A stretch of 64,000 nt of DNA from Candidatus Colwellbacteria bacterium CG10_big_fil_rev_8_21_14_0_10_42_22 (GTDB lineage: Bacteria; Patescibacteriota; Minisyncoccia; UBA6257; Colwellbacteraceae), in contig PFAH01000008.1 in NCBI GenBank assembly GCA_002773725.1, forward strand, positions 2,654 to 66,653, given 5' to 3'. Each line of letters starts with the position of its first letter. Position 1 is the first letter of the stretch. Shown here one piece after another: positions 12,314 through 60,802 of this stretch. The translations under genes were made by a program, and so were the position numbers. The notes under the pieces are model-generated. The model saw only the letters and a program-made list of their open reading frames with translations, did no database searches and was not told the DNA's origin.

Positions 12314-14133
12314 CGACTTTTCAGATTGTAGACGAAGATAGATTTGCCGATTACATAGTCGGGTTGCGTGGGTCGTTTTAACCATTCATATTCGTCTTCT
12401 GGATTCATCCAAAATCCGGGCGCTTTTTCGCCTATAGATGTTTGTAGGAAACCGACAGACAATGCCAGCCACTCTATATTGCTCTCTCCAGGGTTGCCTT
12501 TAGCAGAGTACCAATTAACCACTCTTTCTTCTCCCAAATAGTATTGAGGCGAACCGGCGCCAAAATAATCAATGGCAATTCTATCTATATTCATTTCGTT
12601 AACAAATGCCGGTAAGCGCTTCAAATCCTGACCCCAGTCGTAATTAGAATCAGTAACATACTGCCAACCATTATCCGTTCCAACTAGTTCATTGAAATAC
12701 GGAAGATAATGCGGATAGGCGGCGATTGAAGAAGCGCCAAACCAAACAAACATGAAAATGACGAATGCAATCTTAAGCTGTTTTTTGTAGAAATCGGTGT
12801 GCACGTATTTTTTGAGTGCCCCAACTGAAAGCATGTATATAAGGGGAATAATGGGCATCAAGTGTCTAAAACCAATATTCAAAGAGCTTTGAATACTGTA
12901 GGCGATATATATGGCTACGAAAGATATGGCCACGAACTCAGAGAGGTTGGTATTTAGATATTCCTTGAGTTTAGGAGTCCTTTTGATAAGCGCCTTAAAT
13001 GTGTTGTAGATACTAAATATCAAAGCAAGAAAGATAAGGATCAAGAGGGACAAGCTTTCTTTTAGCAGATAAACGGCTGGGAAATAAAGAGAGCTCCCCT
13101 TGTTATCAACCGTTCCAAAGAAATAGGCGGTATTTCCTCCGGCGCTACGTTGCATAACCATCAGAAGACCCAACATATATTGGGCATACGGCCTGATAAC
13201 GGGCTTGTCAGCGCTCCAAATCGTGATATCTGCTAAACACCTAAGGGGACTACAAATTTCACCTTCTGGGGTCGGTGGGGCAGGAAAACCTTCTAAAATG
13301 TGACTGGTGTCAGCTAATTGTTTTTCGGGTGGATAATTGAGAGTCGCAATCCAATAGAATGGATAAATTAAGATGGCGCCAATTACAAATATGACAATGA
13401 CTCTCCCCATATACTTTGTGCCAACATTAAATATTTGTTTTCCGATGTGTCCTCCAGATTTTGATATTCGACTAAAGGCAATTATTAACCCTACCAATAT
13501 AAAATGAGCGACTAAAAGAGCGGCTGAGAACTTCATCAATTGGGCAATACCAAAACCAACCCCTGCCCAAATTAAGTTTTTCTTAGTAGGCGTCGCCAAA
13601 TATTTGGAAAATAGATAAAGAGATAGAATAATACCTAGAGTTGCGCCCACATCAGTTGTCACGTAATGGCCATGAGCGAGAAAATTGGGAGATAGAGCGG
13701 TGGCAAGGGTGGGTAAAAGCGCCCACCAATCTCCCATAAGTTCACGTGACCACAAATAAACAACTAGCACCAAAAGAAGCATTAAGAGCATGGGACCAAT
13801 TCTGGATAGCTGGATTATTTGATCTGCGTCATTGCCTGATTCATAGAGAAAAGCACGACCTATATCCCACTGGCCGTTAACCTGACTCTGCCAGTATTCA
13901 TTTTCGATTGGAAAGTTTGGATTAAGCGTCAAAAGAGGGAGACCGGCTAACATTTTTACCAAAGGTGGGTGCTCGGGGTTGAGACGATAGTCAAGGTATT
14001 TAACATATCCGTAACCGGCTGGAATATGCGCCAACTCGTCCATGGTGGCGGACTCTTGCGCGGATGAACCGACCATTAGAAGGAGCGAGAGAATTAATAT
14101 AAAAACTAAAACTACTCTATTTAAAAAAGTCAT
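12310..14133 (-). CDS. GT-C family glycosyltransferase (ArnT / protein-O-mannosyltransferase-like, family 39/83)
   Basis: 607 aa, polytopic. The first loop DELAHIPAGYGYVKYLDYRLNPEHPPLVKMLAGLPLL matches the PMT/ArnT catalytic-loop signature (DE...H...EHPPL.K). Confidence 0.8.
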   Translation of the reverse strand: MTFLNRVVLVFILILSLLLMVGSSAQESATMDELAHIPAGYGYVKYLDYRLNPEHPPLVKMLAGLPLLTLNPNFPIENEYWQSQVNGQWDIGRAFLYESGNDADQIIQLSRIGPMLLMLLLVLVVYLWSRELMGDWWALLPTLATALSPNFLAHGHYVTTDVGATLGIILSLYLFSKYLATPTKKNLIWAGVGFGIAQLMKFSAALLVAHFILVGLIIAFSRISKSGGHIGKQIFNVGTKYMGRVIVIFVIGAILIYPFYWIATLNYPPEKQLADTSHILEGFPAPPTPEGEICSPLRCLADITIWSADKPVIRPYAQYMLGLLMVMQRSAGGNTAYFFGTVDNKGSSLYFPAVYLLKESLSLLILIFLALIFSIYNTFKALIKRTPKLKEYLNTNLSEFVAISFVAIYIAYSIQSSLNIGFRHLMPIIPLIYMLSVGALKKYVHTDFYKKQLKIAFVIFMFVWFGASSIAAYPHYLPYFNELVGTDNGWQYVTDSNYDWGQDLKRLPAFVNEMNIDRIAIDYFGAGSPQYYLGEERVVNWYSAKGNPGESNIEWLALSVGFLQTSIGEKAPGFWMNPEDEYEWLKRPTQPDYVIGKSIFVYNLKSR

Positions 14134-15014: not shown

Positions 15015-17033
15015 ATGTTGAAACTGATATCAGAAAAAAAACCGGCGGGGGACCAACCCAAAGCCATAGATGCCCTGGTTAAAGGATTAAAAAAAGGTCT
15101 TAAGCACCAAACTCTTTTAGGCGTAACCGGTTCAGGTAAAACCTTCACTATCGCCAATGTTATAAACGAAGTGAAAAGACCAACCCTTGTTATCGCACAT
15201 AATAAAACTTTGGCTGCTCAGCTTTGTAATGAATTTAGAGAGCTGTTTCCCGAAAACCAAGTCCACTATTTTGTTTCATACTACGATTACTACCAACCAG
15301 AAGCATATCTTCCCAATACAAATACATATATAGCCAAAGAGGCGCATACAAATGACGAGATAGACCGCCTACGTCACGCTGCCACCACGGCTCTTTTGAC
15401 TCAAAAAGATGTAATTATTGTGGCATCCGTCTCGGCCATTTATGGCCTCGGCACGCCGGAGCTTTATAGAGAAAACATTCTTCACTTTAAAATAGGCGAT
15501 CAGATATCCCGCGAAGAATTGGCGAGGCGTTTAATCAGGGTACAGTTCACGCGTACCAACGCCAACCTTAATCGAGGTTCTTTTCGTTTGCGAGGAGATA
15601 ACTGGGAGATAATGTCTCCTCACGACGACGTTGTTTACAACTTCGTTATGGATAAAGGCAAGATATCAAAGATATATATAGTAGATCCGACTATCGGCTT
15701 CAGTTACGAAAAGACGCCAAGCACGGACGAAGTTTATATATCACCCGTTAAACACTACATTACTTTAGATAGTCAGATAGAGGTAGCTCTTAAAAATATC
15801 GAACAAGAAATGAAGGAAAGAATCAAATATTTTGAAAAAGAAGGCAAACTTTTGGAAGCAGAGATTATAGAACGTCGCACCAAGGGCGATATGGCGATGA
15901 TTCGGGAAGTGGGATATTGCAATGGCATTGAGAATTATTCAAGACATTTAGATGGCAGAGCTCCGGGTGAGCCCCCCGCCACTTTACTTGATTACTTTCC
16001 CGAGGATTTCTTGCTGGTTATAGATGAGTCGCACGTAACGGTGCCACAAATCAGAGGTATGTTTGAGGGAGATGCTTCTAGAAAAAGGACTTTGATAGAA
16101 CATGGTTTTCGCCTCCCGTCAGCTTCTGATAACCGCCCCCTTAAATTTGGTGAATTCGAAAAAAGAGTAGGACAAACAATATACACATCGGCTACGCCGA
16201 GTGTCTATGAGGCAGAACACAGTCAAAAAACGGTTGAGCAGGTTATTAGACCCACTGGTCTAGTTGATCCAATCATCACTATCCGTCCGGCTAAGGGTCA
16301 GATAGACGATCTTATACCTCGCATCAAAGAGCGGATAGAAAAAAGCGAGAGGGTGCTTGTAACGACTTTGACAAAGAAGATGGCAGAGGACCTAAACGAC
16401 TATTTACACGACTTAGGTTTAAAAGTTAATTATTTACACAGCGACGTTGAAACATTGGATAGGATTAGAATTCTGACGGGTCTTAGGAGAGGCGACTTTG
16501 ATGTTTTAGTTGGAGTAAACCTGCTTAGGGAAGGATTAGATTTGCCAGAAGTATCTTTAGTGGCAATCCTAGATGCTGACAAAGAGGGATTCTTACGTAG
16601 CGAAACAGCGCTTATCCAGACAATTGGTCGGGCGGCCAGAAACGTAAACGGGGAAGTACTGATTTATGCAGACCAAATAACTGGTTCGGTAAAAAGGGCT
16701 GTTAGCGAAACAGAGAGGAGAAGAAAGATCCAAATAGCTTATAACAAAAAGCATGGCATTACTCCCCAAACAATTGTTAGAAACATTCAAGATATTTTAC
16801 CAATTGAGAACCGCGAAAGAGAGGCAAAAATAGGTGAAATACTTGAACTTGAGGTAGGTGCGTTACCCAAAACAACCAAGCGTATTGAAGAGATGATTAG
16901 AGACAAAGAACGAGAAATGAAGGAAGTAGCTAAAAAACTGGATTTTGAGTTGGCAGCTATCTTAAGAGATGAGCTGGTGATCCTTAAAGAAAAAATGAGT
17001 CATAAGAACAAAAAGAAACATGGCTCCGCCTAA
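15015..17033 (+). CDS. uvrB: excinuclease ABC subunit B
   Basis: 672 aa; Walker A GVTGSGKTF, helicase motifs, the beta-hairpin region and the C-terminal UVR coiled-coil ELAAILRDELVILKEKM. Confidence 0.95.
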   Translation: MLKLISEKKPAGDQPKAIDALVKGLKKGLKHQTLLGVTGSGKTFTIANVINEVKRPTLVIAHNKTLAAQLCNEFRELFPENQVHYFVSYYDYYQPEAYLPNTNTYIAKEAHTNDEIDRLRHAATTALLTQKDVIIVASVSAIYGLGTPELYRENILHFKIGDQISREELARRLIRVQFTRTNANLNRGSFRLRGDNWEIMSPHDDVVYNFVMDKGKISKIYIVDPTIGFSYEKTPSTDEVYISPVKHYITLDSQIEVALKNIEQEMKERIKYFEKEGKLLEAEIIERRTKGDMAMIREVGYCNGIENYSRHLDGRAPGEPPATLLDYFPEDFLLVIDESHVTVPQIRGMFEGDASRKRTLIEHGFRLPSASDNRPLKFGEFEKRVGQTIYTSATPSVYEAEHSQKTVEQVIRPTGLVDPIITIRPAKGQIDDLIPRIKERIEKSERVLVTTLTKKMAEDLNDYLHDLGLKVNYLHSDVETLDRIRILTGLRRGDFDVLVGVNLLREGLDLPEVSLVAILDADKEGFLRSETALIQTIGRAARNVNGEVLIYADQITGSVKRAVSETERRRKIQIAYNKKHGITPQTIVRNIQDILPIENREREAKIGEILELEVGALPKTTKRIEEMIRDKEREMKEVAKKLDFELAAILRDELVILKEKMSHKNKKKHGSA

Positions 17034-17088
17034 GGCGGATGCTCATAGTTTTAACTAAAATAAATTTTAGAAAACAATGGCACAAAAT
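17025..17088 (+). repeat. copy A of a ~64-nt intergenic module (CCGCC-TAA-GGCGG hairpin, AT-rich tract, start codon)
   Basis: TCCGCCTAAGGCGGATGCTCATAGTTTTAACTAAAATAAATTTTAGAAAACAATGGCACAAAAT. It matches 34070-34132 with about 4 mismatches. The uvrB stop codon TAA forms the hairpin loop, and the module runs into the first codons of uvrA. Confidence 0.85.
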
Positions 17089-19647
17089 AAAATAATCATA
17101 AAAGGAGCTAGAGAGCATAATCTTAAGAATATAAACTTAGAGATACCTCGAGACAAAATGATTGTTTTTACGGGTCTCTCCGGTTCGGGCAAGTCCTCTT
17201 TAGCGTTTGATACTATTTTTGCAGAAGGGCAAAGACGCTATATAGAATCATTATCTGCTTATGCGAGACAATTCTTGGGGCGATTAGATAAACCCGACGT
17301 TGATGAAATAGAAGGATTATCTCCCGCCATTTCAATTGATCAGAAAAGCCATTCTTCTAACCCCAGATCAATTGTGGCGACCATCACCGAAATTTACGAC
17401 TACATGAGGGTTTTATACTCGCGCATTGGCAAACCACATTGCGTAGAATGTGGAGATGAAATAAGACGGATGTCTTCCGGGGAAATAGTAGACGCAATCA
17501 TAGAAACATTAAATACAGAAAAGGAGGCCAAAGAATTAATCGTGATGGCGCCCGTGGTTATTGGTAGGAAGGGCGAATACTATCAATTACTATACGATTT
17601 CCTTGGTTCCGGTTTTACTGAAAGTAGAGTTGACGGGGAATTTCGTTCTCTGCGCGATAGAATAGAAATGGCGCGTCACAAGCGCCATGATATCGATTTA
17701 GTTACAGACAAGATATCCGTCAGTACGGATTTTGGATCTAAGGATGGCAGATTAAGATTGGCTGAAGCCGTGGAGTTGGCGCTCAAATATGGTCACGATT
17801 CCGTAAAGATACTTTTTTCAAAAACCTTAAGTGGTCTTTATCAAAAAAGTATTAAAAAAGACACTAAAGAAAAGGAGATTATTTTTTCAGCACGTTTTGC
17901 CTGCCCGAAGGATAATTTTTCTTTTCCCGAAATTGAGCCACGACTTTTTTCATTCAACAGCCCCTATGGTGCATGTCCAGAATGTCATGGACTTGGCACA
18001 GAGAGCGTGTGGTCTGAAAGGCCTTGTGAAGTGTGCCAAGGTAAGCGTTTAAGACCGGAAGCTCTAAGCGTATTTATAAAAGGCAAAAATATTGTAGAAG
18101 CCACCGCCTTTTCAATAGGTGATGCTATTGATTTCTTTAATTCATTTGACGGATTGTCTACTCAGGACAAAGAGATAGCCCAAGCCCCTCTTAGAGAAAT
18201 TGGTTATCGACTTCAATTTATGAATGATGTTGGTTTGGAATACATTACTCTTGATAGAAAAGCGGGAACACTTTCGGGAGGAGAAGCCCAAAGAATTCGT
18301 TTGGCCTCTCAGATTGGTTCACGTTTGGTCGGGACTCTCTATATTTTAGACGAGCCAACTATCGGTTTACACCAACGAGATAATACTAAGCTGGTAAAAA
18401 CCCTTCAGGACTTGAGGGATTTAGGGAACACCATCGTGGTGGTAGAGCATGACGAAGAGACGATTAGAGCATCCGATTATCTTGTTGATATTGGGCCGGC
18501 TGCCGGAATTCATGGAGGAGAAATCGTAGCCGAAGGCAAAGTGCCCGAAATATTCAAAGATAAATCTCAAAAATCCCTGACTTTGGATTACTTACGAGGC
18601 GATAACGAGATTCCTTTACCGGAGGAAAGAAGAAAGATAAAAACTCCTGGAGATTATTTAAGAATCAAAGGGGCGACTGAAAATAATCTTAAGGGAATAA
18701 ATGTTGATATACCGCTTCGTAAATTCGTAACCGTTACGGGTGTTTCTGGTTCTGGAAAGAGTTCTCTTGTTTACGACGTTCTCTACAAAACTCTGGCTAA
18801 CAAGTTCAATCGCGCTAGTTACCAAGAGGGTGGGCACAAAAGTATTTTGGGCATGGAGTATGTAAATAGGGTGGTAAACATCGATCAATCTCCAATAGGT
18901 AGGACGCCTCGTTCAAATCCGGCCACGTATGTAGGCGCTTGGACATATATCCGAGAACTTTTTTCAGCTACTCCCGAAGCTAGGTTTAGGGGGTATAAAC
19001 CGGGTAGGTTTAGTTTCAATGTAAAAGGAGGAAGGTGTGAGAATTGTCAGGGTCATGGGCAGATTGCAATCGAGATGCATTTTTTGCCAACCGTTTATGT
19101 TAATTGTGATGCGTGTCATGGTAGGAGATTTAATCGGGAAACTTTGGAGGTGGTCTATCGAGATAAGAATATTTTTGAAGTATTAGAGATGACAATTGAA
19201 GAAGCGGTTAAATTTTTTGAAGACATACCTTGGCCTTACGACCGACTAAAAATTATGGACGAGGTGGGTCTTGGATATTTAAAGATTGGGCAATCTGCCA
19301 CCACATTGTCGGGCGGAGAAGCGCAGAGAATAAAGCTGGCTAAAGAGCTTGGAAAAAGGGACACTCGCAGAACCCTCTACCTATTAGACGAGCCCACCAC
19401 CGGATTGCACTTCGAGGATGTTAAAAAGTTATTGATTGTTCTTCAACGACTTGTTGATCGGGGTAATACTGTAGTGGTCATTGAGCATAACTTAGATGTG
19501 ATTAAAACATCCGATTGGGTTATAGATTTGGGGCCTGGAGGTGGAGATAAGGGTGGAGAAGTGGTGGTTGCCGGCACGCCCGAAGAGGTGGCAAGAAAAA
19601 AGACGAGCTATACTGGTGAATATTTGAGAAAAGTACTGAAATGTTAA
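17077..19647 (+). CDS. uvrA: excinuclease ABC subunit A
   Basis: 856 aa with two ABC cassettes: [14 protein letters not shown] and [11 protein letters not shown] Walker A, two LSGGEAQR signatures, and zinc-finger Cys pairs. It is shorter than the usual ~940 aa. Confidence 0.93.
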
Positions 19648-21838: not shown

Positions 21839-22042
21839 GAAATGTTTTTCTTTTTGGGGAGAGGGGAGGGGGAGAAAGCGAGCTCAACTCGATCACTAAG
21901 GCCATCGGCCCACTGGACCTTCGCTCGAATCTCTCCCTCTACCGCCGTTCACGGCTGTGGTACTAGGCGGCGCTCCTCTTGCTGTTGCTATCCATGGGAT
22001 CCTCCCATGTGATTCGCTCCGGAACAAGTCCGGCTTCTTTAT

Positions 22043-28022: not shown

Positions 28023-28063
28023 AAACCTTTATTTATTAAAGCTAAAATACTCATTGGAGCGGC

Positions 28064-28170
28064 ATATAGGGCGCTCACTCAACACAGAGGCTTAGGAGGC
28101 CACCATGTCCGCTCCATATCACAGCCCTTAACAGCCCTCAATATTTGAGGGCTGTGATATTCTTATATAT
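28064..28170 (+). promoter_or_regulatory. structured leader upstream of murB with nested inverted repeats and an 8-codon upstream ORF
   Basis: TGGAGCGG...CCGCTCCA stem (28066-28118). It encloses AGGAGG-5nt-ATG TCC GCT CCA TAT CAC AGC CCT TAA (MSAPYHSP). The duplicated arm CACAGCCCT/CAGCCCTCA can pair either way with TGAGGGCTGTGATAT (28116-28160). The structure ends 10 nt before the murB ATG. Confidence 0.45.
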
Positions 28171-30549: not shown

Positions 30550-32985
30550 ATGAGAAATAAAAAACTAATTTTGGATTTAGAAAAGGTGGGACTGAAAGAC
30601 GTTGCGTTAGTGGGCGGTAAAAATGCTTCTTTAGGGGAGATGCTCCAGAAACTCACGCCCAAGGGAGTGGCTATACCGTCGGGCTTCGTGGTAACGGCTG
30701 AAGCATATAGATATTTTCTTAGAGAGACGAAATTGGACTCCTTCATAAAAGAATCTTTAAAAGGTTTAAACACACACAATGTTCGCGATTTAGCTGTTGT
30801 AGGTAAGAAGATCAGAGAAGCGATTGTGAATGCTGAATTTCCAAAAGAATTGGAGTTAGAAATAGAAAAAGCATATAAGGGTTTGGAAAAGAAATATGGT
30901 AAAAACATTGACGTAGCAGTTCGTTCTAGCGCGACAGCCGAAGACCTGCCTGGTGCTAGTTTTGCCGGTGAACACGAAACATATCTTGGCATAAGAGGGG
31001 TTGAAGACGTGACAAGGGCCACTCGCTCGGCCATGGCTTCTCTTTTTACAAACAGAGCTATTTCTTACAGGGTGGACAAAGGTTTTGGTCATACTAAAGT
31101 AGCGCTTTCAGTCGCTGTCCAGCTAATGGTTCGTTCAGATTCGGGGGCGTCTGGTGTCATGTTCACGCTTGATACAGAATCCGGCTTTAAGGATTTGGTT
31201 TTGATTAATGCCGCTTGGGGTCTTGGAGAGATGGTGGTGCAGGGGAAGGTGAATCCAGACGAATACTTAGTAGCTAAGAAAAACTTGGGGAGTGTTCCTA
31301 ATCCAGTCATCTCAAAATCTTTAGGCAGTAAAGATCGCAAGATGATATATGCGAAGGGCAAGAAGGGGATTCGTCCGGTTAAGGTTGTCCCCACATCCCC
31401 GAAGGAACGAAATAGTTTTGTATTAAGCGAGAAGGAGATTTTAACTCTTGCTCGATGGGGAGTTGAGATAGAAAAGCATTATTCTAAAAAATACGACAAA
31501 TGGACGCCCATGGACATGGAATGGGCCAAAGATGGACGGACCGGCAAGCTATTTATTGTACAGGCCAGACCGGAAACTATTCATGCTGGTCGGGATTTCA
31601 CAAAGGTTCACGAATATATACGCCTTGAAGACGGTAAACTTTTGACTCAGGGGGTATCTGTGGGTAGCAAGATAGCCGTTGGTAAAGCTAGGGTTATTTT
31701 AGATGCAAAGGACATTCATAAATTTAAGGCCGGTGAGGTGTTGGTAACCGATATGACTGACCCCGATTGGGAGCCGATTATGAAGATCGCTTCAGCCATC
31801 ATTACGGATAAGGGTGGGCGCACTTCTCATGCGGCTATTGTCAGTCGAGAGCTTGGCATACCGGCCGTAGTGGGATCTGGTAACGCCACTAGAAAAATTA
31901 AAACGGGTCAGGATGTGACAATTGATACAGTTGGTAGCGACGGCTTGGTTTTTCAGGGGCTCCTTAAATTTAAGGTCAGGGAACGCGATTTAAAGACGAT
32001 TCCCGAGACCAAGACCAAAATAATGATGAATATTGGCACGCCCGAAACCGCTTTTGAAAAATCTCTCCTACCGAATAAGGGCGTAGGGTTGGCGCGAGAA
32101 GAGTTTATTATCGCTTCTGAAATTGGTATTCATCCGATGGCTCTTATCAACTACAAAAAATTATCCACCCCCCTTAAAAAGAAGATAGATGCCAAAAGTT
32201 TGGGTTGGGAAGATAAGAAACAGTTCTATGTCGATAAACTGGCTTATGGAATTGCTAAAATAGGCACAGCTTTTAATCCGCACCCCGTCATTGTTAGGTT
32301 TTCAGATTTCAAAACCAACGAATATCGCACCCTCTTGGGAGGAGAGCTTTATGAGCCGATAGAGCAAAACCCGATGATAGGTTGGCGGGGCGCCTCTCGC
32401 TATTATCACGAGAATTTTAAAGAAGCTTTCAAATTAGAGCTCCTTGCCCTCAAGAAGGTTCGTAACGAGATGGGCCTCAAGAACGTAATACCGATGGTGC
32501 CGTTTTGTAGAACTCCGAAAGAGGGGATTGCGATTCTCAAATTAATGAAAGAAGCGGGATTGAAACCCAAATATTTTAATAAAGACAAAGACACCCTACC
32601 TAACCGACAGACAGACATGCCGGTCTATGTTATGTGCGAGATTCCTTCGAATGTTATTAATGCCGAAGAATTTTTAGATATATTTGATGGAATGTCTATT
32701 GGCTCCAACGATCTTACGCAATTAATTCTAGGACTGGATAGAGATTCTGAAATTGTGAGCGGTGTTGGCAACGAGAAAGACCCAGCTCTTAAATCAGCTG
32801 TAGCGGATATTATTAAAAAGTGTAAGAAACGGGGTAAATATATAGGTATTTGTGGACAGGCGCCGTCCGACTATCCCGACTTCGCCGCCTTTTTAGTAAG
32901 CGAGGGGATAGAGAGCATGTCTTTGACCCCGGATACGGTCGTTGAAACCACTATCGCAGTCGCTAAACAAGAGAAGAAAAAGTAG
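30550..32985 (+). CDS. ppsA: phosphoenolpyruvate synthase (pyruvate, water dikinase)
   Basis: 811 aa with an ATP-grasp N-terminal domain. The phosphohistidine domain is GGRTSHAAIVSRELGIPAVVG. The C-terminal PEP-utilising TIM barrel contains MIGWRGASRY and CGQAPSDYPD. Confidence 0.9.
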   Translation: MRNKKLILDLEKVGLKDVALVGGKNASLGEMLQKLTPKGVAIPSGFVVTAEAYRYFLRETKLDSFIKESLKGLNTHNVRDLAVVGKKIREAIVNAEFPKELELEIEKAYKGLEKKYGKNIDVAVRSSATAEDLPGASFAGEHETYLGIRGVEDVTRATRSAMASLFTNRAISYRVDKGFGHTKVALSVAVQLMVRSDSGASGVMFTLDTESGFKDLVLINAAWGLGEMVVQGKVNPDEYLVAKKNLGSVPNPVISKSLGSKDRKMIYAKGKKGIRPVKVVPTSPKERNSFVLSEKEILTLARWGVEIEKHYSKKYDKWTPMDMEWAKDGRTGKLFIVQARPETIHAGRDFTKVHEYIRLEDGKLLTQGVSVGSKIAVGKARVILDAKDIHKFKAGEVLVTDMTDPDWEPIMKIASAIITDKGGRTSHAAIVSRELGIPAVVGSGNATRKIKTGQDVTIDTVGSDGLVFQGLLKFKVRERDLKTIPETKTKIMMNIGTPETAFEKSLLPNKGVGLAREEFIIASEIGIHPMALINYKKLSTPLKKKIDAKSLGWEDKKQFYVDKLAYGIAKIGTAFNPHPVIVRFSDFKTNEYRTLLGGELYEPIEQNPMIGWRGASRYYHENFKEAFKLELLALKKVRNEMGLKNVIPMVPFCRTPKEGIAILKLMKEAGLKPKYFNKDKDTLPNRQTDMPVYVMCEIPSNVINAEEFLDIFDGMSIGSNDLTQLILGLDRDSEIVSGVGNEKDPALKSAVADIIKKCKKRGKYIGICGQAPSDYPDFAAFLVSEGIESMSLTPDTVVETTIAVAKQEKKK

Positions 32986-33053
32986 AAAATAGTCGCAACC
33001 CCGACCTGGGTCGGGACGCTCAAAATTTTAATTAAAACAAGTTTTAAAAAATT

Positions 33054-34061
33054 ATGGCGAATATAGCGTTTTATGGAGTTAAACCATGGGGACAAGAATA
33101 TCTTAAAAAATACCTTAAGGGGCACAAGCTTTATTTTCACGAGGAACATATAGACGAAGAACATCCGCCGACTGAAAAAGATATTGATATACTCTCTGTT
33201 TTTGTTGGCTCTAATGTAACGGCAGAGGTGATAGGTTCTTTGCCGAAACTAAAGTATATAACAACTCGTTCAACGGGCTTTGACCATATAGATCTTAAGG
33301 CATGTGAAGAAAGAAAAATTTTAGTTTCGAATGTACCCTCTTATGGAGAAAACACGGTAGCCGAATATGCTTTTGCTTTGATCTTGGTTTTGTCCAGACG
33401 CATCTACGATGCCTACGAACAAGTGCGAGAAGAAGGAGATTTTAGCTATGACAACCTGCAGGGATTCGACTTAATGGGCAAAACTTTAGGGGTTATAGGA
33501 ACAGGTAGAATCGGTAAACATACGGCTCGCATTGGAAAAGGTTTTGATATGGAAGTTTTGGCGTACGATGTTTCTCCCGACAAGAAATTTGCCAGAAAGA
33601 TAGGCGTTAAGTATGTATCCCTGGAAAAGCTTCTCAAAGAAAGCGACATTGTTTCTCTCCACGTCCCATACATGAAAGAGACCCACCACCTAATCAATAA
33701 AGAGAAAATAGCACTGATGAAAAAGGGTTCATATCTCATTAACACCAGTCGTGGAGCAATAGTGGATACGCAGGCCTTAGTTGGGGCATTAAAGAGCGGT
33801 CTTTTGGCTGGGGCCGGACTGGATGTATTTGAGGAAGAGGAGGCCGTTAAGGACGAAGCGAGCTTCTTGTCAGCGAAAGACACCACCGACCACGACCTGC
33901 GTAACGTGATAGCAGATCATATCTTAGTAGATATGCCCAACGTTATTGTTACCCCCCATAACGCCTTCAATACCAAAGAAGCGCTTGAACGCATATTGGA
34001 TACCACTGTTGAAAACGTAAACAAGTTTCTCAAGAGAAAGCCCCAGAATATAGTTAATTAA
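33054..34061 (+). CDS. D-isomer-specific 2-hydroxyacid dehydrogenase (hydroxypyruvate/glycerate dehydrogenase-like)
   Basis: 335 aa; NAD-binding GVIGTGRIGKHTARIG. Catalytic R/E/H blocks are NTSRGAIVD and TPHNAF. Confidence 0.85.
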   Translation: MANIAFYGVKPWGQEYLKKYLKGHKLYFHEEHIDEEHPPTEKDIDILSVFVGSNVTAEVIGSLPKLKYITTRSTGFDHIDLKACEERKILVSNVPSYGENTVAEYAFALILVLSRRIYDAYEQVREEGDFSYDNLQGFDLMGKTLGVIGTGRIGKHTARIGKGFDMEVLAYDVSPDKKFARKIGVKYVSLEKLLKESDIVSLHVPYMKETHHLINKEKIALMKKGSYLINTSRGAIVDTQALVGALKSGLLAGAGLDVFEEEEAVKDEASFLSAKDTTDHDLRNVIADHILVDMPNVIVTPHNAFNTKEALERILDTTVENVNKFLKRKPQNIVN

Positions 34062-34069
34062 AGATGTCT

Positions 34070-34132
34070 TCCGCCTAAGGCGGATGCTTATAGTTTTAAC
34101 TAAAATAAATCTTAGAAGACAATGGCAAAAAT
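34070..34132 (+). repeat. copy B of the ~64-nt intergenic module
   Basis: TCCGCCTAAGGCGGATGCTTATAGTTTTAACTAAAATAAATCTTAGAAGACAATGGCAAAAAT, near-identical to 17025-17088. It runs into the eno start codon. Confidence 0.85.
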
Positions 34133-35279
34133 ATCCGACATCAAGGCCTCTAAAATTTTAAATTCGCGAGACGACTGGACAATCGAAGTCGAACTTTTTT
34201 TGGATGATGGCGTTAGCGTTAAAGCATCTGTTCCGGAAGGAAAAAGTGACGGCTCGCACGAAGCTGTTTCGGCAGATGTCGAAACGGCGATTTATAATAT
34301 CCATAAAGAAATTCTACCGACCCTACGTGGTCTTGAGGTATCAGACCATTTGGCTCTAGATAACAAACTTATAGAATTAGATGGGACGAATAACAAATCT
34401 CGTCTTGGGGCAAATGCTATCTTAGCTGTCTCTATCGCTTCGTTTCGGGCTTCTGCTCAATCGAGGGACAAGCCCATTTGGCGATACATCAAAGAAGTTA
34501 GCGGGCTTCAATCATTTGGCTCGACTAAAATATATGCAAATTTAATTAATGGCGGGAAACATGCTGGAAACAATTTAGATATTCAAGAATATTTGGTTAT
34601 TCCAAAGACGGAAAACATCAAAGAAGCGGCCGATATTATAAGTCGTATATATCACAATCTCGGCACTATCTGTATTGAGAAATACGGAGAGTCCGCGACA
34701 TTGGTTGGAGATGAAGGAGGGTATGCCCCATCTCTTGATAACAACCTTATCCCCCTTAAATTAATTAAAGAGGCGGCTGGTGATTTTGAGATAGATTTGG
34801 GCATAGATGCCGCTGCTAGTGGTATTAACATGAGTAAGGAAAAATTAATGAAGATATATCGTGAGATGGTTAGCGCCTATAACCTTTTTTATTTAGAAGA
34901 TCCTTTTAACGAAGAGGATTTTCCGGCATTTAAAGAAGCGCTACTCGAATTTGGTGAAGAAGTGGTGGTAACGGGAGATGATTTGACCGTGACCAATACA
35001 GAGCGTATGCGCATAGCTAAGAATCACAAGAGCATTAATGGAATCATCATCAAGCCCAATCAGATTGGGACGGTCTCAGAGGCGATTAGGGCTGTTCAAA
35101 AGGCGCGGGAGTATGGTTGGTCTGTGATTGTATCCCACAGATCTGGCGAAACTAACGACGACTTTATAGCCGATTTTGCCGTAGGTGTCGGAGCCGATGG
35201 TGCCAAGATTGGAGCACCAGCGAGAGGGGAAAGAATTGCCAAGTATAACCGTCTTCTAAAAATTGATGAAGAAAAATAA
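34122..35279 (+). CDS. eno: enolase (phosphopyruvate hydratase), short form
   Basis: 385 aa; ILNSRDDWTIEVEL...SVPEGKSDGSHEAV...LDGTNNKSRLGANAILAVSIA and C-terminal IKPNQIGTVSEAI...SHRSGET enolase blocks. Confidence 0.82.
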   Translation: MAKISDIKASKILNSRDDWTIEVELFLDDGVSVKASVPEGKSDGSHEAVSADVETAIYNIHKEILPTLRGLEVSDHLALDNKLIELDGTNNKSRLGANAILAVSIASFRASAQSRDKPIWRYIKEVSGLQSFGSTKIYANLINGGKHAGNNLDIQEYLVIPKTENIKEAADIISRIYHNLGTICIEKYGESATLVGDEGGYAPSLDNNLIPLKLIKEAAGDFEIDLGIDAAASGINMSKEKLMKIYREMVSAYNLFYLEDPFNEEDFPAFKEALLEFGEEVVVTGDDLTVTNTERMRIAKNHKSINGIIIKPNQIGTVSEAIRAVQKAREYGWSVIVSHRSGETNDDFIADFAVGVGADGAKIGAPARGERIAKYNRLLKIDEEK

Positions 35280-41660: not shown

Positions 41661-41969
41661 ATGACTATAGACATAATAGCCAATGGGATAGAGCTCACAG
41701 ATCCGCTTAGGGAATATGTAAATATGAAAATCGGTTCTTTAGAGAAGTATTTAAAGAGCTATGGCCCTGAGAATTTACGGATAGATGTGGAGGTCGCTCG
41801 CACTACCCAGCATCACCGACACGGAGACGTATTTTACGCCGAAGCCAATCTAAATTTGCCTGGCAAGCTTTTAAGGGCAACTCACGAAGCATCTGATATT
41901 AGGGTGGCTATTGATAAGGTTAAAGACACGCTTCAAAGAGAGATTAGGAAATATAAAGATCAACATTAA
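41661..41969 (+). CDS. hpf: ribosome hibernation promoting factor (YfiA/HPF family)
   Basis: 102 aa; IELTDPLREYVNMKIGSLEKYL...IDVEVA fits the sigma-54 modulation / ribosomal subunit interface fold. Confidence 0.8.
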   Translation: MTIDIIANGIELTDPLREYVNMKIGSLEKYLKSYGPENLRIDVEVARTTQHHRHGDVFYAEANLNLPGKLLRATHEASDIRVAIDKVKDTLQREIRKYKDQH

Positions 41970-46014: not shown

Positions 46015-46617
46015 ATGAAATATCCTCTGTGGAAAAGATTTTTTGATATTACGGGGGCCGTCTTAGGCCTTTTAATTTTTTTACCCCTATTTCCGCTTAT
46101 AGCTTTAGCCATAAAGTTAGATAGTGAAGGGCCCGTCTTTGTGAGATTGAAGAGGGTGAGCGAGGGTAGAGAAATTATGGTTTATAAATTTCGTTCTATG
46201 ATTAAGAATGCCGAAGAGCAAAAAGTTCGACTGGCTCATCTTAATGAGCGTAACGATGGTCCTCTTTTCAAAATTCGGAAAGATCCACGTGTGACGAGAG
46301 TCGGTAGATTTATACGAAGAATTCGGATAGATGAATCTCCACAATTAGTAAATGTTCTAAGAGGTGAGTTGGGATTGGTGGGCCCTCGTCCCCGTGAGCC
46401 AGAAGAAGCAAGACAATACCCTCGCGAATACAAAAAAATTATTGATTTTCGAAACGGCGTAACGGGTTATTCTCAAGTAAACGGAGCATCTAGTTTGCCT
46501 TTTATAAAAGAGCTTGAACTCGATAAATATTATGTTGAGAACTTTTCTTTTTGGCTCGATTTAAAGATTGTTTTAAAGACAATCGTTATTTTATTTTTCG
46601 ACCCCACAGCCGTATGA
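46015..46617 (+). CDS. polyprenyl-phosphate sugar-1-phosphate transferase (monotopic bacterial sugar transferase, PglC/WbaP C-terminal type)
   Basis: 200 aa; one re-entrant helix, then GPVFVRLKRVSEGREIMVYKFRSM...NDGPLFKIRKDPRVTRVGRFIRRIRIDESPQL...GELGLVGPRP. Confidence 0.8.
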   Translation: MKYPLWKRFFDITGAVLGLLIFLPLFPLIALAIKLDSEGPVFVRLKRVSEGREIMVYKFRSMIKNAEEQKVRLAHLNERNDGPLFKIRKDPRVTRVGRFIRRIRIDESPQLVNVLRGELGLVGPRPREPEEARQYPREYKKIIDFRNGVTGYSQVNGASSLPFIKELELDKYYVENFSFWLDLKIVLKTIVILFFDPTAV

Positions 46618-54250: not shown

Positions 54251-54263
54251 TGATGAGGTGTTC

Positions 54264-54605
54264 CTAGTTTTCGTCCTCATCTTCAGCTTCAGAGAACCAC
54301 TTCTCGTTTTCGGGGGGCGCAATTCGCACCTCGACGACGTAGGAGCCCCCACAATCGTCGAGTTCCTGTCCACAGAACGGACAGATGTACTCGAGCAATC
54401 CATTGACCCGAAGATCCCCTCCTGGTGCTCTGCCCCCCGCATTGCATTCCCATTCCGTAGAAGAGTCAGCAATGGATGCACCGATTGCCTTGAAGTGTTC
54501 CTCGACAATCTCAATACAGGCACAGACATCCGGATCGATGAGGTCTGCCGAGCATTCGAATTTTTCGAAAGCCCTGCCAACGAAGTCCAAGTCGATGGGT
54601 TTCAT
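54264..54605 (-). CDS. hypothetical acidic protein with Cys pairs (zinc-ribbon-like), GC-rich island gene 5
   Basis: 113 aa; CSADLIDPDVCAC...EWECNAGG...ICPFCGQELDDCGG and the tail EAEDEDEN. AGAAGGGA lies upstream of the ATG. Last gene before the terminator. Confidence 0.5.
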   Translation of the reverse strand: MKPIDLDFVGRAFEKFECSADLIDPDVCACIEIVEEHFKAIGASIADSSTEWECNAGGRAPGGDLRVNGLLEYICPFCGQELDDCGGSYVVEVRIAPPENEKWFSEAEDEDEN

Positions 54606-54620
54606 ACTTCTTGTTCCCTT

Positions 54621-54989
54621 CTACGCAATCCAAAGACCGTGCAGACCGGATAGTTCACGCCTGAACACTCCGCCCCTCTTCTCCACATGCTCGCGAAACA
54701 TACGAAAAACGTTGTCCACGTTCTCCGCGTCGTACCACCCATCGTATAGACCATCATCATCGAGGGCGATGTAAATGAGTCCTTTTGGTTGGAGAGAAGC
54801 ATCGTGCTGGGAAATGACCTCCTCACGTTCTTCGTCCCAGAGAAGAATGTGACCCATGTTGGGCAGAAACCCCACTCTTTTCCCGAGGATTCTTGGATGG
54901 GATTTCTCCAAGTTGGCCAATGCCGTTCCGCCGGGGTGGTGTCCCTCTGTCCATCCATACCTCGCCCTATAGAGCCAAAGCGTTTCCAT
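54621..54989 (-). CDS. hypothetical protein, GC-rich island gene 4
   Basis: 122 aa; AAGGGG 5 nt before the ATG, and 11 nt after the stop of gene 3. The alternative frame 54602..54994 looks compositionally like noise. Confidence 0.45.
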   Translation of the reverse strand: METLWLYRARYGWTEGHHPGGTALANLEKSHPRILGKRVGFLPNMGHILLWDEEREEVISQHDASLQPKGLIYIALDDDGLYDGWYDAENVDNVFRMFREHVEKRGGVFRRELSGLHGLWIA

Positions 54990-55000
54990 ATCAACCCCTT

Positions 55001-55339
55001 CTAGGTACCGATGGTGTGAATACCGCGTTGCCCCGGATACTCTGGGGCCTCGACGATGGTTCGTGTCCTCACATACGCGTCGTAGTTGTCTTCATAAACC
55101 CAACCCAGGATTATTCCATTCAGGTTGTTGTCTTCGAAGAAAACTCGAATCTTATGACCAACATGTGGCCATGCTCCGGTGTGGTAGTTGAAGTGCTCAC
55201 CCTCCATCCATGAAAGAAGCCCTCCATTGGAAAGATCGAATTGGTGAATCTGGTAAGATTCGTTCAAACGAACTTCTCCCACCATATTCGTGACATCGAC
55301 CTCGATAACCACACCAGCATGCCAATCGCGATATGTCAT
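55001..55339 (-). CDS. hypothetical protein, GC-rich island gene 3
   Basis: 112 aa from the ATG at 55339 (MTYRDWHAGVVIEV...). The ATG overlaps the stop of gene 2 in an ATGA motif, indicating translational coupling. Confidence 0.45.
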   Translation of the reverse strand: MTYRDWHAGVVIEVDVTNMVGEVRLNESYQIHQFDLSNGGLLSWMEGEHFNYHTGAWPHVGHKIRVFFEDNNLNGIILGWVYEDNYDAYVRTRTIVEAPEYPGQRGIHTIGT

Positions 55340-55500
55340 GATCTGTGTCCTCCGGTTGTTATGAAGCGACGAAATCTCGGATTGTGGCGGTTGTCCCTGC
55401 ACTCAAGTCGAGCGGGCGCAACTCGCATCTTCTTGTCTTCACGATGCAGAAGTTTGGGAGAGCCCAACGCTTGTGCAACATGTCTCCAGAAATCGTTCAT
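55336..55500 (-). CDS. hypothetical small basic protein, GC-rich island gene 2
   Basis: 54 aa from the ATG at 55500, with GAGGAAG 7 nt upstream. The ORF track extends to a GTG at 55548, which has no ribosome-binding site. Arg/His-rich. Confidence 0.4.
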   Translation of the reverse strand: MNDFWRHVAQALGSPKLLHREDKKMRVAPARLECRDNRHNPRFRRFITTGGHRS

Positions 55501-55609
55501 AGTTCTCTTCCTCAGTTGTGAAAGAGCGAAGCCCTTTCTTTTCCCCACGGGGCTTATAGGTCTTGAATATGCAATATTTATAAGAGTCAGTCAACTTCGT
55601 TAGAGTTAA

Positions 55610-55625
55610 GCTATCTCAAGATAGC
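55610..55625. promoter_or_regulatory. near-perfect palindrome GCTATCT-CA-AGATAGC in the intergenic region upstream of the gene 2-5 operon
   Basis: Read directly. A TTGACT box (minus strand, plus coordinates 55589-55594) lies next to it. Candidate operator. Confidence 0.4.
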
Positions 55626-55746
55626 CATCGGATGCCAAAGGGCACTTTATCTCTAACGGGGTCAATTTTAATACACCCAAAAATGCATGAACCCCACCTT
55701 TGTGAAATCGGGCGGGATTCACGCAGATGGGGTTGTTGGGCTCGCT

Positions 55747-55983
55747 TTAGACGCGCCCTCGGATTCTGGGAAAAGAGAAGCATCGGTCGTGCTGATGGCA
55801 CCTCTCGGCGCTGTTGTAGATAGAAAGGCGAATTTCGCAGCCCTTCTCCGCGCAAATGCGTCCCGTGGGATACACCTTGTGTTTGCGGTTGCTTCCGCCG
55901 ATTCTTCTCGCAATTGTCGGATTGCGACGCGTAGTCGCTCCTCCAAAATTGCCTCCCACTCCCTCGTTCTCAAAGAGCGGCAT
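55747..55983 (-). CDS. hypothetical zinc-finger-like small protein, GC-rich island gene 1
   Basis: 78 aa; GGGAGG with a 6-nt spacer before the ATG. Cys/His pattern CAEKGC-x12-CHQHDRC. It is the first gene downstream of the divergent promoter region. Confidence 0.5.
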   Translation of the reverse strand: MPLFENEGVGGNFGGATTRRNPTIARRIGGSNRKHKVYPTGRICAEKGCEIRLSIYNSAERCHQHDRCFSFPRIRGRV

Positions 55984-56009
55984 CTTTTTCCTCCCTATCC
56001 CGATGCCTT

Positions 56010-56126
56010 AGACCCCTAAAATACAATTTTTAATTATTAAAAGTCAATATTCGTATTTGACTAGCGAAATAAATTGTGGCAATTTCTATATGTACATTGA
56101 AGTCTAAGTTGAAGGGAGCGTTCATC
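56010..56126. promoter_or_regulatory. divergent control region between the minus-strand and plus-strand small-gene operons
   Basis: AT-rich, with AGTCAA (56042-56047) and TTGACT (56057-56062) forming an inverted pair of -35-like boxes 9 nt apart (AGTCAA-ATATTCGTATT-TGACT). Genes with good ribosome-binding sites start on both sides. Confidence 0.45.
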
Positions 56127-56405
56127 GTGCAAGACATTCCCGAAAACGTGGAACTCGGAAGTCAGCTCTATTGGGAGTATCGACTTCGCAACGAACTGAA
56201 CTCCAGATGGAATCGTGTTGCCAATCATCTCGTGGCTTTGAAGAAGCGGATGTATGAACAGAGATGTGATGACGGATGCATTCTCGGGATTTGGCACTGG
56301 CTTGTGAATCAGTGGGGAGAGTCCCTTCTGAGAAGGCGTAATGCCTGCGAGGAACGCATTCGCATTTTGGAGCACCAGATTTGGATTAAAGGAGAACGAG
56401 AATGA
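56127..56405 (+). CDS. hypothetical protein, GC-rich island plus-strand gene 1
   Basis: 93 aa from the GTG at 56127, with AAGGGAG 8 nt upstream. The ORF track ATG at 56076 lacks a ribosome-binding site. The stop overlaps the next ATG (ATGA). Confidence 0.4.
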   Translation: MQDIPENVELGSQLYWEYRLRNELNSRWNRVANHLVALKKRMYEQRCDDGCILGIWHWLVNQWGESLLRRRNACEERIRILEHQIWIKGERE

Positions 56406-56650
56406 ATGGTATGAGCATCATTCAGCGCATTGACACCGCCTTCATCCTTATAGCAAGCGTTGTCGGGTTTGTAGTTGGCGTTGTTGCGGGTTTGCTTACT
56501 GGTCTTTGTGTCCTTGTCGGCGTTGTTTTCGGTTTTGATTGGCTCCTAGAAATCAATCCGAGATATTTGGTTGCCGTTTCGGTCTTTGTTGTTTGCCTGA
56601 CGGTAATCGTGCTGGCGAGGATTCGATTGAAGAAAGAAATGCTTCTGTGA
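56402..56650 (+). CDS. hypothetical small membrane protein, GC-rich island plus-strand gene 2
   Basis: 82 aa; AAGGAG 7 nt upstream; hydrophobic stretches FILIASVVGFVVGVVAGLLTGLCVLVGVVFGF and YLVAVSVFVVCLTVIVLA. Confidence 0.5.
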   Translation: MNGMSIIQRIDTAFILIASVVGFVVGVVAGLLTGLCVLVGVVFGFDWLLEINPRYLVAVSVFVVCLTVIVLARIRLKKEMLL

Positions 56651-56886
56651 TGGAAAATCCTTCCGAGCGAACGGCGTTGGCTGTCGTCATCGGTATCGCT
56701 GTCACACTGGTGTTGGTCTGGTTTGCCTTCCGTGTGGGAGACCCCCAGTGGTTCATTCTCATCCTCGCTTTTCCTATCGGTGTCGTCTCCTTCCTCGCTC
56801 TCGTTTTCAGCTTGGTGTGCTGTCTTCAGAAGGGGATTTGCACAGCGATCATCGAAGACAAGCGCCGGCAAAAGCCGGACAGGTAA
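56650..56886 (+). CDS. hypothetical small membrane protein, GC-rich island plus-strand gene 3
   Basis: 78 aa from the ATG at 56650, overlapping the previous stop (TGATG). Two TM helices and a CC pair. The terminator follows immediately. Confidence 0.45.
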   Translation: MENPSERTALAVVIGIAVTLVLVWFAFRVGDPQWFILILAFPIGVVSFLALVFSLVCCLQKGICTAIIEDKRRQKPDR

Positions 56887-56887
56887 T

Positions 56888-56946
56888 ACCCGCACATCGA
56901 GACGCAAAACTCGCGCGTCTTAGGGGGAGATGTGCGGGTTTTGTGC
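56888..56946 (+). terminator. intrinsic terminator (ACCCGCACATC ... GATGTGCGGGT TTTGTGCTTC) with an inner palindrome GAGACGC/GCGTCT
   Basis: Read directly; an 11-bp outer stem followed by a T-rich tract. Confidence 0.65.
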
Positions 56947-58700: not shown

Positions 58701-58734
58701 CTTTTCCGCCTACTTATTTGTAGAAAAACTTATC

Positions 58735-58803
58735 TGACAGTAGGTACGCCTACCTGACAGTAGGTGCGCCTACCTGACAGTAGGTAGGCCTGCCTGCCGA
58801 TAG
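58735..58803 (+). repeat. three tandem ~20-nt units (TACCTGACAGTAGGT-N-CGCC), each a CCTAC/GTAGG mini-hairpin, in the rnpB leader
   Basis: Read directly: TATCTGACAGTAGGTACGCC TACCTGACAGTAGGTGCGCC TACCTGACAGTAGGTAGGCC, then TGCCTGCCGATAGGCAGGG. Related GC-rich motifs (CCTGCC, TAGGTAGG, and the palindrome CCTACCGGTAGG) recur at 59211-59262, 3-prime of rnpB. Confidence 0.7.
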
Positions 58804-59210
58804 GCAGGGAGGCAATTTAGATAGCAGCTTTGTGGACTCTACACAGTCGAGATAGTGATTGTTCTTTACATCAGGAGTCCGCAAAGAGGAAAGTCCGGAC
58901 ACTCCTCCGACTTAGGTCGGAGAGCAGGGTAGCGGGTAATACCCGTCGTTCGAAAGAATAGAGGTGCGAGCAGTGACGCTCTGTTTAGAAATATGCAGAG
59001 AGGCCCGATCCCAACGTAGATGGTCTAATCCCGCCATAGGGGCAAAAAGCGGGAGTGAAACGGCTAAATCCTTACCTGAGTGCAAGGCCGTGCTCCGACT
59101 TCGGTCGGAGAGAGCCGCACGAGCTTGAGAGTAATCGATGGCCTAGATAGATTGCTATCATCCGACCACGCGTCGGATTACAGAATCCGGCTTATTAATT
59201 GCCTCCCTGC
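58804..59210 (+). ncRNA. rnpB: RNase P RNA (bacterial type A)
   Basis: P1 pairing GCAGGGAGGCAATT (5-prime) with AATTGCCTCCCTGC (3-prime). P4 strands AGGAAAGTCCGGACACTCC and ACAGAATCCGGCTTAT. Conserved AGGGTAGCGGGTAATACCCG, GGGCAAAAAGCGGGAGTGAAACGGC and TGAGTGCAAGGCCGTGCTCCGACTTCGGTCGGAG modules. Confidence 0.85.
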
Positions 59211-59263
59211 TTACCGGCAGACAGACCTGCCTGCTGATAGGTAGGCCTGCCTACCGGTAGGTA

Positions 59264-59309
59264 AAAGAGGTCATCCGAGATTTATCTTAGATGACCTCTT
59301 TTGGTTTTT
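59264..59309 (+). terminator. intrinsic terminator after rnpB (AAGAGGTCATC ... GATGACCTCTT TTGGTTTTT)
   Basis: 11-bp stem with a T-tract, read directly. Confidence 0.7.
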
Positions 59310-60688: not shown

Positions 60689-60802
60689 CATCCGCCTGGT
60701 TATTCATTAGTTACAAATAGCAGTCCGCCTTTGGCGGAGCGCATATCAAATTGACAATTATGAATATTTGTATCATCATCCGAGAGTCCTTTAAAATACA
60801 TC

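Follow-up and report, generated by a model that had tools for sequence, protein, structure and literature searches.

The small intergenic repeats that come closest to the element described here are, judged by architecture, the REP2 repeats of Neisseria and the mycobacterial interspersed repetitive units (MIRUs). REP2 repeats are 120 to 150 bp long, occur in about 23 to 26 copies, lack terminal inverted repeats and contain two internal stem-loops, together with a recognisable promoter, a site for ribosome binding and an ATG that are fused to downstream open reading frames (ORFs) (Delihas 2011, PMC3184786). MIRUs are 40 to 100 bp long, intercistronic and G+C-rich, with about 40 to 50 copies that are often in tandem and small bridging ORFs; their ends overlap the flanking stop and start codons, and both filled sites, with 4-nt direct repeats, and empty sites are known (Delihas 2011, PMC3184786). 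Here, we describe a module found between uvrB and uvrA, and again upstream of eno and of a 2-hydroxyacid dehydrogenase (2HADH) gene, in a 64-kb stretch of contig PFAH01000008.1 of the tiny groundwater bacterium Candidatus Colwellbacteria bacterium CG10_big_fil_rev_8_21_14_0_10_42_22 (hereafter the window, numbered from its first letter). The module shares the logic of both families but departs from each in defining features, namely, size, copy number, promoter and ribosome-binding site, bridging ORF, and tandem repetition.

A repeat search within the window aligned 17025-17086 with 34070-34131 at 94% identity across 62 nt, in line with what an earlier note on this DNA had claimed from its letters, and a 21-nt core (ATAGTTTTAACTAAAATAAAT) occurs exactly twice against 0.00 occurrences expected from 100 shuffles. 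Both near-identical copies open with TCCGCC-TAA-GGCGGA, and direct reading of the sequence and its ORFs also bore out the claim that the uvrB ORF (15015-17033) has its stop codon in the loop of this leading hairpin (TAA, 17031-17033). They share the end ACAATGGCA, the ATG of which is the start of uvrA (17077) and of eno (34122). These two copies, the only ones noted earlier, are real, but a third, degenerate copy (33000-33059, 63% identical) had been missed, directly 5' of the 2HADH gene (33054-34061). A second, independent assembly of this organism (L001) also contains the eno copy, which is therefore no assembly artefact. Pfam supports the annotation of uvrB, uvrA, uvrC, the enolase, a pyruvate phosphate dikinase (PPDK)/phosphoenolpyruvate-utilising enzyme (30550-32985), and the D-2-hydroxyacid dehydrogenase, in a window that is 90% coding, with genes that are largely co-directional and often overlap.

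Comparison of filled and empty sites shows that the module was inserted within one lineage, as 57 bp of DNA placed exactly on the start codons of uvrA, eno, and the 2HADH gene, all three of them housekeeping genes. In five relatives (L012-L016, UvrA 79 to 83% identical), uvrB ends 14 nt inside uvrA, and the junction holds a single ATGGC: ..AA(A/C)C ATGGC NCNAGATAAG.. (..AAC ATGGC NCNAGATAA..). The filled junction of the window reads AAACATGGC, 52 nt of element, and ATGGCACAAAAT, that is, AAACATGGC followed by TCCGCC...AAAACA ATGGC and then by ACAAAAT. The extra bases number 57, the 52-nt element plus a second ATGGC that holds the start codon. That removing the element and one ATGGC restores the overlap of the uvrB stop with the uvrA start was predicted before the loci of these five relatives were fetched and was then confirmed; ATGGC is present once in each of the five empty sites and twice in the window and in the uvrA locus L010. 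L005 and L019 lack the module at 2HADH/eno, where a 3-nt gap follows the stop (TAG-aac-GTGGT and TAA-aac-GTGGC, respectively), and L002, L005, and L019 lack it at PPDK/2HADH.

All three insertions have the same orientation, that of the genes, and lie 3' of (A/G)TGGC. ATGGC encodes Met-Ala, and each target gene formerly overlapped or abutted the upstream gene of its operon (uvrB/uvrA, 2HADH/eno, and PPDK/2HADH). The left ATGGC at eno, now without use, has decayed. At uvrA and eno, filled and empty sites together reveal a short direct repeat of 5 nt at the junction, the kind of flanking duplication by which one recognises MITEs (miniature inverted-repeat transposable elements). The sequence fits two readings of its right-hand ATGGC, which may be a genuine duplication of the target or may belong to the element as its 3' end. 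A longer target duplication, considered on account of the resemblance between the A-rich flanks, was judged to be an effect of low complexity. The idea of a portable cassette put forward earlier agrees well with the clean 57-bp insertion at uvrB/uvrA and with the presence/absence differences at 2HADH/eno and PPDK/2HADH, and the proposal that both downstream genes start from the repeat holds in that the ATG stands at the end of the module; however, ATGGC is already the start of uvrA in relatives devoid of the module and was not imported with it.

The nearest relative (GCA_018826645.1 and GCA_043819735.1; UvrA 85% and enolase 80% identical) shares the uvrA and eno insertions, each at the position it has in the window, and both therefore predate the split of the two lineages. 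Its eno copy is also carried by two Logan run assemblies. In a UvrA identity matrix, the window and this relative are mutually nearest, yet they are nearly as distant from one another as each is from the empty-site clade. Presence at two loci only, with absence or lack of conservation in relatives, had been named in the earlier note as speaking against the module; we found three loci, two of them conserved in the relative, and a very narrow distribution.

About 72 kb of source sequence contain three copies, and two are known in the relative, one a pattern match in its representative metagenome-assembled genome and the other interrupted. Neither an nhmmer profile nor a covariance model (R1) detected additional copies, whether in the window, which was scanned with filters off, in a further ~9 kb of the source, or in related loci totalling ~172 kb. 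A scan pattern that matched all three window copies, as a positive control, had the relative's eno copy as its sole match in the GTDB representative genomes (596 Gb); the JGI metagenome contigs gave three chance matches in coding or other sequence, none of them related, and the viral contigs gave zero matches to two patterns. The source genome itself stands outside both large collections (the GTDB representatives and JGI). Rfam returned nothing at gathering thresholds and just chance eukaryotic or CRISPR matches up to an E-value of 10. Pfam found no transposase or recombinase domain in 28 window ORFs, the gene tables precomputed for the syntenic loci list none, the 64 kb plus ~9 kb of the source genome yielded no Y1 HUH transposase, and full-text searches of the literature turned up no account of an element of this kind in Patescibacteria.

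The window and the relative agree at 31 to 46% of four-fold degenerate sites, which are thus saturated, and a plain spacer (IMPDH/DUF5652) aligns at ~47%. The module is identical at 47 of 52 positions at eno and at 50 of 52 at uvrA, once an insert nested in the relative's uvrA copy is excluded (90 to 96%, P ~1e-11 to 1e-15 at p = 0.45), and the relative's eno copy equals the window's uvrA copy except in the loop of the first hairpin. Such identity in spite of saturated synonymous sites indicates that the module is kept by purifying selection, probably as a functional intergenic spacer.

As for its structure, the module consists of two adjacent stem-loops, HP1 and HP2 (Table 1), and its inverted repeats are internal to these; no terminal inverted repeats were found at the element ends (TCCGCCTAAGG... 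and ...TTAGAAAACA) in any rotation across the ATGGC repeat. HP1 has six G+C-rich pairs and a loop of 3 to 4 nt (about -9 kcal/mol). Its loop is free in sequence (TAA, TGA, GGA, and CTGG), and a stop codon is retained where uvrB reads in. HP2 (UGC.CAU.GUUUU..CUAAAA-UAAA-UUUUAG AAAAC.AUG GCA) is a long, A/U-rich hairpin of 17 pairs with three asymmetries, namely, a bulged U, a 1x1 A.A internal loop, and an AA bulge. The AT-rich tract described earlier is present, but it corresponds to the two arms of this long imperfect hairpin. The outer 3' arm of HP2 is formed by the start codon and the next codon, and its 5' arm (UGC-U-CAU) is complementary to the closing ATGGCA; the start codon is therefore within the stem. 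Direct reading found no Shine-Dalgarno sequence ahead of the AUG.

Table 1. Parts of the three module copies and of their insertion sites in the 64-kb window
Feature	Positions	Strand	Sequence and remarks	Support
Left ATGGC, uvrB/uvrA site	17020..17024	+	Original target, now within the uvrB frame (..CAT GGC..)	Single ATGGC in 5 empty-site relatives
HP1, uvrA copy	17025..17039	+	TCCGCC-TAA-GGCGGA; uvrB stop codon forms the loop (TAA, 17031-17033)	-8.9 kcal/mol at 37 C
HP2, uvrA copy	17040..17082	+	17 pairs; 3' arm with start codon 17077-17079 and second ATGGC 17077-17081	Covariance model, 74.6 bits
Decayed left target, 2HADH/eno site	34064..34068	+	ATGTC in the window, GTGTC in the relative	
HP1, eno copy	34070..34084	+	TCCGCC-TAA-GGCGGA	
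HP2, eno copy	34085..34127	+	Includes eno start codon 34122-34124	Covariance model, 68.5 bits
HP1, divergent copy	33000..33015	+	CCCGAC-CTGG-GTCGGG	Two pairs altered on both sides relative to the other copies
HP2, divergent copy	33017..33059	+	Includes 2HADH start codon 33054-33056	Three compensatory pairs; covariance model, 64.9 bits

Minimum free energy (MFE) folding gave HP1 plus HP2 in four of five copies, the exception being the relative's uvrA copy, in which the outer stem departs. The folding z-score was about -4 for three copies, and no shuffle folded as well. In the five-sequence alignment, 97.6% of the pair cells hold standard pairs, and sliding the partners lowers this to 42 to 53%. 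In the divergent 2HADH copy, three two-sided pair changes preserve HP2 and two more (U-A to C-G and C-G to A-U) preserve HP1, and all three HP2 asymmetries are retained, with the A.A loop shifted by one position. The eno copy differs from the consensus at three positions; two of these keep a G.U wobble, on the plus strand only, and one breaks an A-U pair. The relative's uvrA copy carries a nested, self-pairing insert of 33 nt (CCCCACAGTAGAGCAAGCTCACTACGGGGCAAG) exactly at the bulged U (L010:9935-9967, the same in L011), of which no other copies were found among the loci fetched with up to 9 mismatches allowed.

Compared with REP2, the module is likewise intergenic and free of terminal inverted repeats, has two internal stem-loops and encloses the downstream start codon, and both are proposed to carry 5'-untranslated-region or expression signals that tie a set of genes to one control. 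The likeness is one of architecture. The module belongs to another phylum (Patescibacteria), measures 52 nt plus 5, and has three window copies and two known in the relative; unlike REP2, it shows a clean filled/empty insertion with ATGGC duplication and pairs the start codon in its second hairpin, with no Shine-Dalgarno sequence and no canonical promoter. It resembles MIRUs in its insertion between cistrons of an operon in gene orientation, in its filled and empty sites and junction direct repeats (4 nt in MIRUs, 5 nt in the module), and in element ends that overlap the flanking stop and start, and, as MIRUs are, it would be transcribed with the operon. In contrast to MIRUs, it occurs as one unit per site, has a mostly A/T-rich sequence, and lacks a conserved bridging ORF. 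A MIRU-like conserved bridging mini-ORF was considered and rejected, as its ATG at 17039 does not share the uvrA frame and the third copy has ACG in its place.

The other families that come to mind are more distant. The hairpins of repetitive extragenic palindromic (REP) sequences and bacterial interspersed mosaic elements (BIMEs), as in malE-malF, are intercistronic and shield the upstream cistron from 3' exonucleases. HP1 is similarly a stable G+C-rich hairpin right after the upstream stop in an operon (at uvrB, on it), but it differs from REPs and REPINs in lacking the GTAG/CGTC tag, in a copy number that is not high (the same stem 3x in 64 kb), in having no REP-associated tyrosine transposase (RAYT) known here, and in being always joined to an A/U-rich HP2, which REPs do not have. 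The palindrome-associated transposable elements (PATEs) of the IS200/IS605 type lack terminal inverted repeats, have subterminal hairpins, and insert in one orientation 3' of a fixed tetra- or pentanucleotide without duplication. Hairpins with unpaired bases, one orientation 3' of a 4- to 5-nt target, and internal sequence near a hairpin that is complementary to that target are shared by the module, but its two hairpins are unrelated in sequence, the target stands on both sides, HP1 abuts the left junction and leaves no room for a 5' guide, and no Y1 transposase was found in the 64 kb plus ~9 kb of source sequence. The module also differs from MITEs, its inverted repeats being internal and not at its ends; from integron attC sites, since it closes with GC(T)CAT/ATGGC and not RYYYAAC/GTTRRRY and the extrahelical bases are a likeness of architecture only; from RNA thermometers (fourU and ROSE), with no Rfam match, no Shine-Dalgarno sequence, and just the AUG paired; and from intrinsic terminators, HP1 not being followed directly by a U-tract.

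We tentatively favour, at somewhat short of an even chance, the view that the module is a low-copy mobile mini-element co-opted as an intercistronic structure that acts on the operon mRNA. We infer both this cis action on the polycistronic mRNA, through which the element would have been retained after insertion, and its route of movement, which may have been target-specific insertion 3' of ATGGC or copy-paste via A-rich microhomology. HP1, at or just past the upstream stop, would serve as a 3' stabiliser or a decoupler for the upstream cistron, and HP2 would tune access to the downstream, Shine-Dalgarno-less start codon, being opened by a terminating ribosome (at uvrB), by temperature, or by cleavage such as that of RNase III. 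The loop of HP1 places the uvrB stop only 7 nt ahead of HP2, so that the outer pairs of HP2 would be opened by a ribosome that terminates there. The module would thereby swap direct coupling by overlap for a structured and tunable intercistronic junction.

Several observations weigh against this co-option as mRNA structure. These genomes also share other regulatory or non-coding stretches that are conserved to the same degree (95 to 97%), so that the conservation indicates a function and not which one. The covariation statistic was reached by 7 of 500 shuffles, all compensatory changes come from the one divergent copy in a set of five sequences from two lineages, and quasi-palindrome correction could hold the arms symmetric without selection. 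HP2 is only moderately stable (-5 to -9 kcal/mol at 37 C), and the MFE fold of the relative's uvrA copy (-24.8 kcal/mol) frees the AUG, versus -20.9 for the fold in which it is paired; masking of the AUG is therefore not strictly conserved. Start-codon masking was also tried and rejected as an outlier property, as none of the three module genes ranks among the 10 gene starts with the highest pairing probability, out of 70 in the window. Lastly, ribosome-mediated opening fits the uvrB/uvrA copy only, as the other upstream stops lie 8 to 14 nt before HP1.

A terminator-promoter-leader cassette, as proposed in the earlier note, seems unlikely to us. HP1 would end the upstream transcripts, and a -10-like box within the left arm of HP2 (YAWART: CATAGT, TATAGT, and CAAAAT) or TAAAAT at -21 to -16 would start a new short-leader transcript lacking the left arm and with its AUG free, which would give each downstream gene its own promoter and silence translation by read-through. 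The insertion sites were formerly between co-transcribed genes, and the 90 to 96% conservation resembles that of a promoter region between the genes at 14133 and 14154. However, HP1 has no U-tract, the nearest TTTT being 10 nt past the stem, although canonical terminators occur elsewhere in this genome (e.g., 59262-59308), and our scan found no terminator-like site on the plus strand at HP1, with none in 16800-17300 and the five in 32800-34400 lying elsewhere or on the minus strand; the terminator half of the proposal is thus not supported.

The promoter half finds no support from consensus and seems to us unlikely. Its attraction is that GATGCTYATAGT resembles the likely promoter GGATGCTATAAT before the gene at 46015, that the CATAGT-type hexamer keeps A at position 2 and T at position 6 in three of three copies, and that the probable promoter of the gene at 41661 (TGGCTATAAT) likewise has its TG two bases away. 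A consensus scan, however, found no sigma-70 -35/-10 pair inside the module upstream of the ATG, and the TG is separated from CATAGT, the best -10-like hexamer, by two bases in place of one, off by one against the TGnTATAAT of the likely promoters of this genome, which lie 6 to 16 nt before the ATG. The third copy (CGCTCAAAAT) lacks the TG and turns TAAAAT into TAAAAC, its hexamer changes are matched by compensating changes in the opposite arm that a promoter alone does not need, and the nested 33-nt insertion of the relative abolishes the TG context. As an observation on the rest of the window, TG(n)TATAAT with no obvious -35 box stands 6 to 16 nt before the ATG of several genes (e.g., 25150, 27342, 41661, 46015, and 60172), which suggests that leaderless or very short-leader mRNAs are widespread in this organism.

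We hold it very unlikely that the module is a selfish mini-element with no host function, its hairpins being single-strand DNA signals for a trans-acting HUH/Y1 transposase (in the style of IS200/IS605-PATE or REP/RAYT) or for a site-specific recombinase, and its target ATGGC being read by the complementary GC(T)CAT, so that insertions survive only on start codons rebuilt by the duplicated ATGGC. Much of the anatomy would suit such an element, namely, the absence of terminal inverted repeats, the conserved extrahelical bases in the hairpins, the same orientation directly 3' of (A/G)TGGC in three of three insertions, the internal sequence complementary to the target, the variable presence of copies among relatives, and the divergent subfamily copy with co-varying arms. 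Fixed orthologues of a selfish element are nevertheless expected to decay neutrally, yet 90 to 96% of the module is kept against saturated synonymous sites. The copy number is very low (three in about 72 kb of source, two known in the relative, and no others in the GTDB representatives), nothing related appeared in the metagenome or viral scans, the 28 window ORFs and the gene tables of the syntenic loci hold no transposase or recombinase domain, and the window has 10 intergenic ATGGC/GCCAT sites and four further start codons within ATGGC that carry no module.

We give equally little credence to a start-codon-seeking mini-element, which would find ATGGC via the complementary GC(U)CAT beside its hairpin, rebuild the start codon, wrap it in a hairpin and split operons. 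Targeting would be guide-like, single-strand or recombinase-mediated and in one orientation, and genes coupled by overlap would become separately gated. HP2 might then be cleaved to yield an mRNA that begins with the AUG and has no leader; leaderless transcripts seem to be in use elsewhere in this genome.

The regulatory site common to DNA repair and glycolysis that the earlier note offered as an alternative is conceivable. Least probable of all is a shared DNA operator, in which a dimeric regulator of uvrA and of genes of lower glycolysis or fermentation would bind either the 16-bp palindrome CTAAAAT-AA-ATTTTAG or all 44 bp of the larger palindrome: an A/T-rich, near-perfect palindrome does stand just 5' of three start codons, orthologous copies are highly conserved in sequence, and eno and 2HADH, beside PPDK, have a functional link, but the third copy alters both half-sites symmetrically while keeping the bulges (TTAAAAC-AA-GTTTTAA), so that pairing and not a fixed half-site sequence is preserved, the conserved stretch (44 bp plus HP1) is far longer than one operator, it shows no convincing match to the boxes of LexA and Rex, to the CcpA cre, or to the Fur/PerR and CodY spacings, and no candidate regulator was found.

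Two further places had been listed earlier as similar hairpins, and in part they are. The one at 60725-60737 (CCGCCTTTGGCGG) shares the stem, but no module core follows. It is part of a lone hairpin (60723-60739, TCCGCC-TTT-GGCGGA) with the HP1 stem and no HP2, followed by GCGCATAT where the module has TGCTCATAG (60723-60750), and could be a module relic or belong to a separate hairpin family; no model match backs a relic. The other (21944-21975) is not of the CCGCC-N3-5-GGCGG form, sits in the spacer after ychF and has no relation to the module. That G+C-rich spacer (21839-22042) shows patchy conservation with L010:14786-15033, including CCGGAACAAGTCCGG, and had no Rfam match up to an E-value of 1.

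Other features of the window deserve mention. A non-coding stretch of ~120 nt on the plus strand (28045-28165), 5' of murB (28171), is ~97% identical to the relative (L002:4150-4262), synonymous sites being saturated, and ends in a canonical terminator (CACAGCCCTC..GAGGGCTGTG plus a T-run); it had a chance match only in Rfam, and we regard it as a candidate new small RNA. The RNase P RNA was located at 58808-59208 on the plus strand (RF00010, 82.9 bits, E = 1.8e-25); its score is below the Rfam gathering score of 100, which is why the default scan missed it. It is flanked by two inverted arrays (58729-58804 and 59206-59261) of ~20-nt palindromic units, CCTACCTGACAGTAGG(TRCG), and these units have ACAGTAG in common with the 33-nt nested insert of the relative. 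Five short ORFs without Pfam match, on both strands, occupy 54258-56907, where the G+C content (~45%) is above that of the rest of the window.

Patescibacteria, also known as the Candidate Phyla Radiation (CPR), have tiny, tightly packed genomes in which genes frequently overlap, and to our knowledge almost nothing is known of their cis-regulatory RNA or small mobile DNA. The module provides a dated and clean case in which a 57-bp insertion split overlapping gene pairs (uvrB/uvrA and genes of glycolysis or fermentation) and was kept by selection for longer than synonymous sites take to randomise. Its compact RNA structure (about 58 nt, with two hairpins, fixed bulges, and the start codon in a stem) is open to direct testing. 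If targeting of ATGGC start codons were an active property of the element, its insertion specificity would be unusual. For these reduced genomes, the module offers a concrete and testable example of how operon junctions may be rewired.

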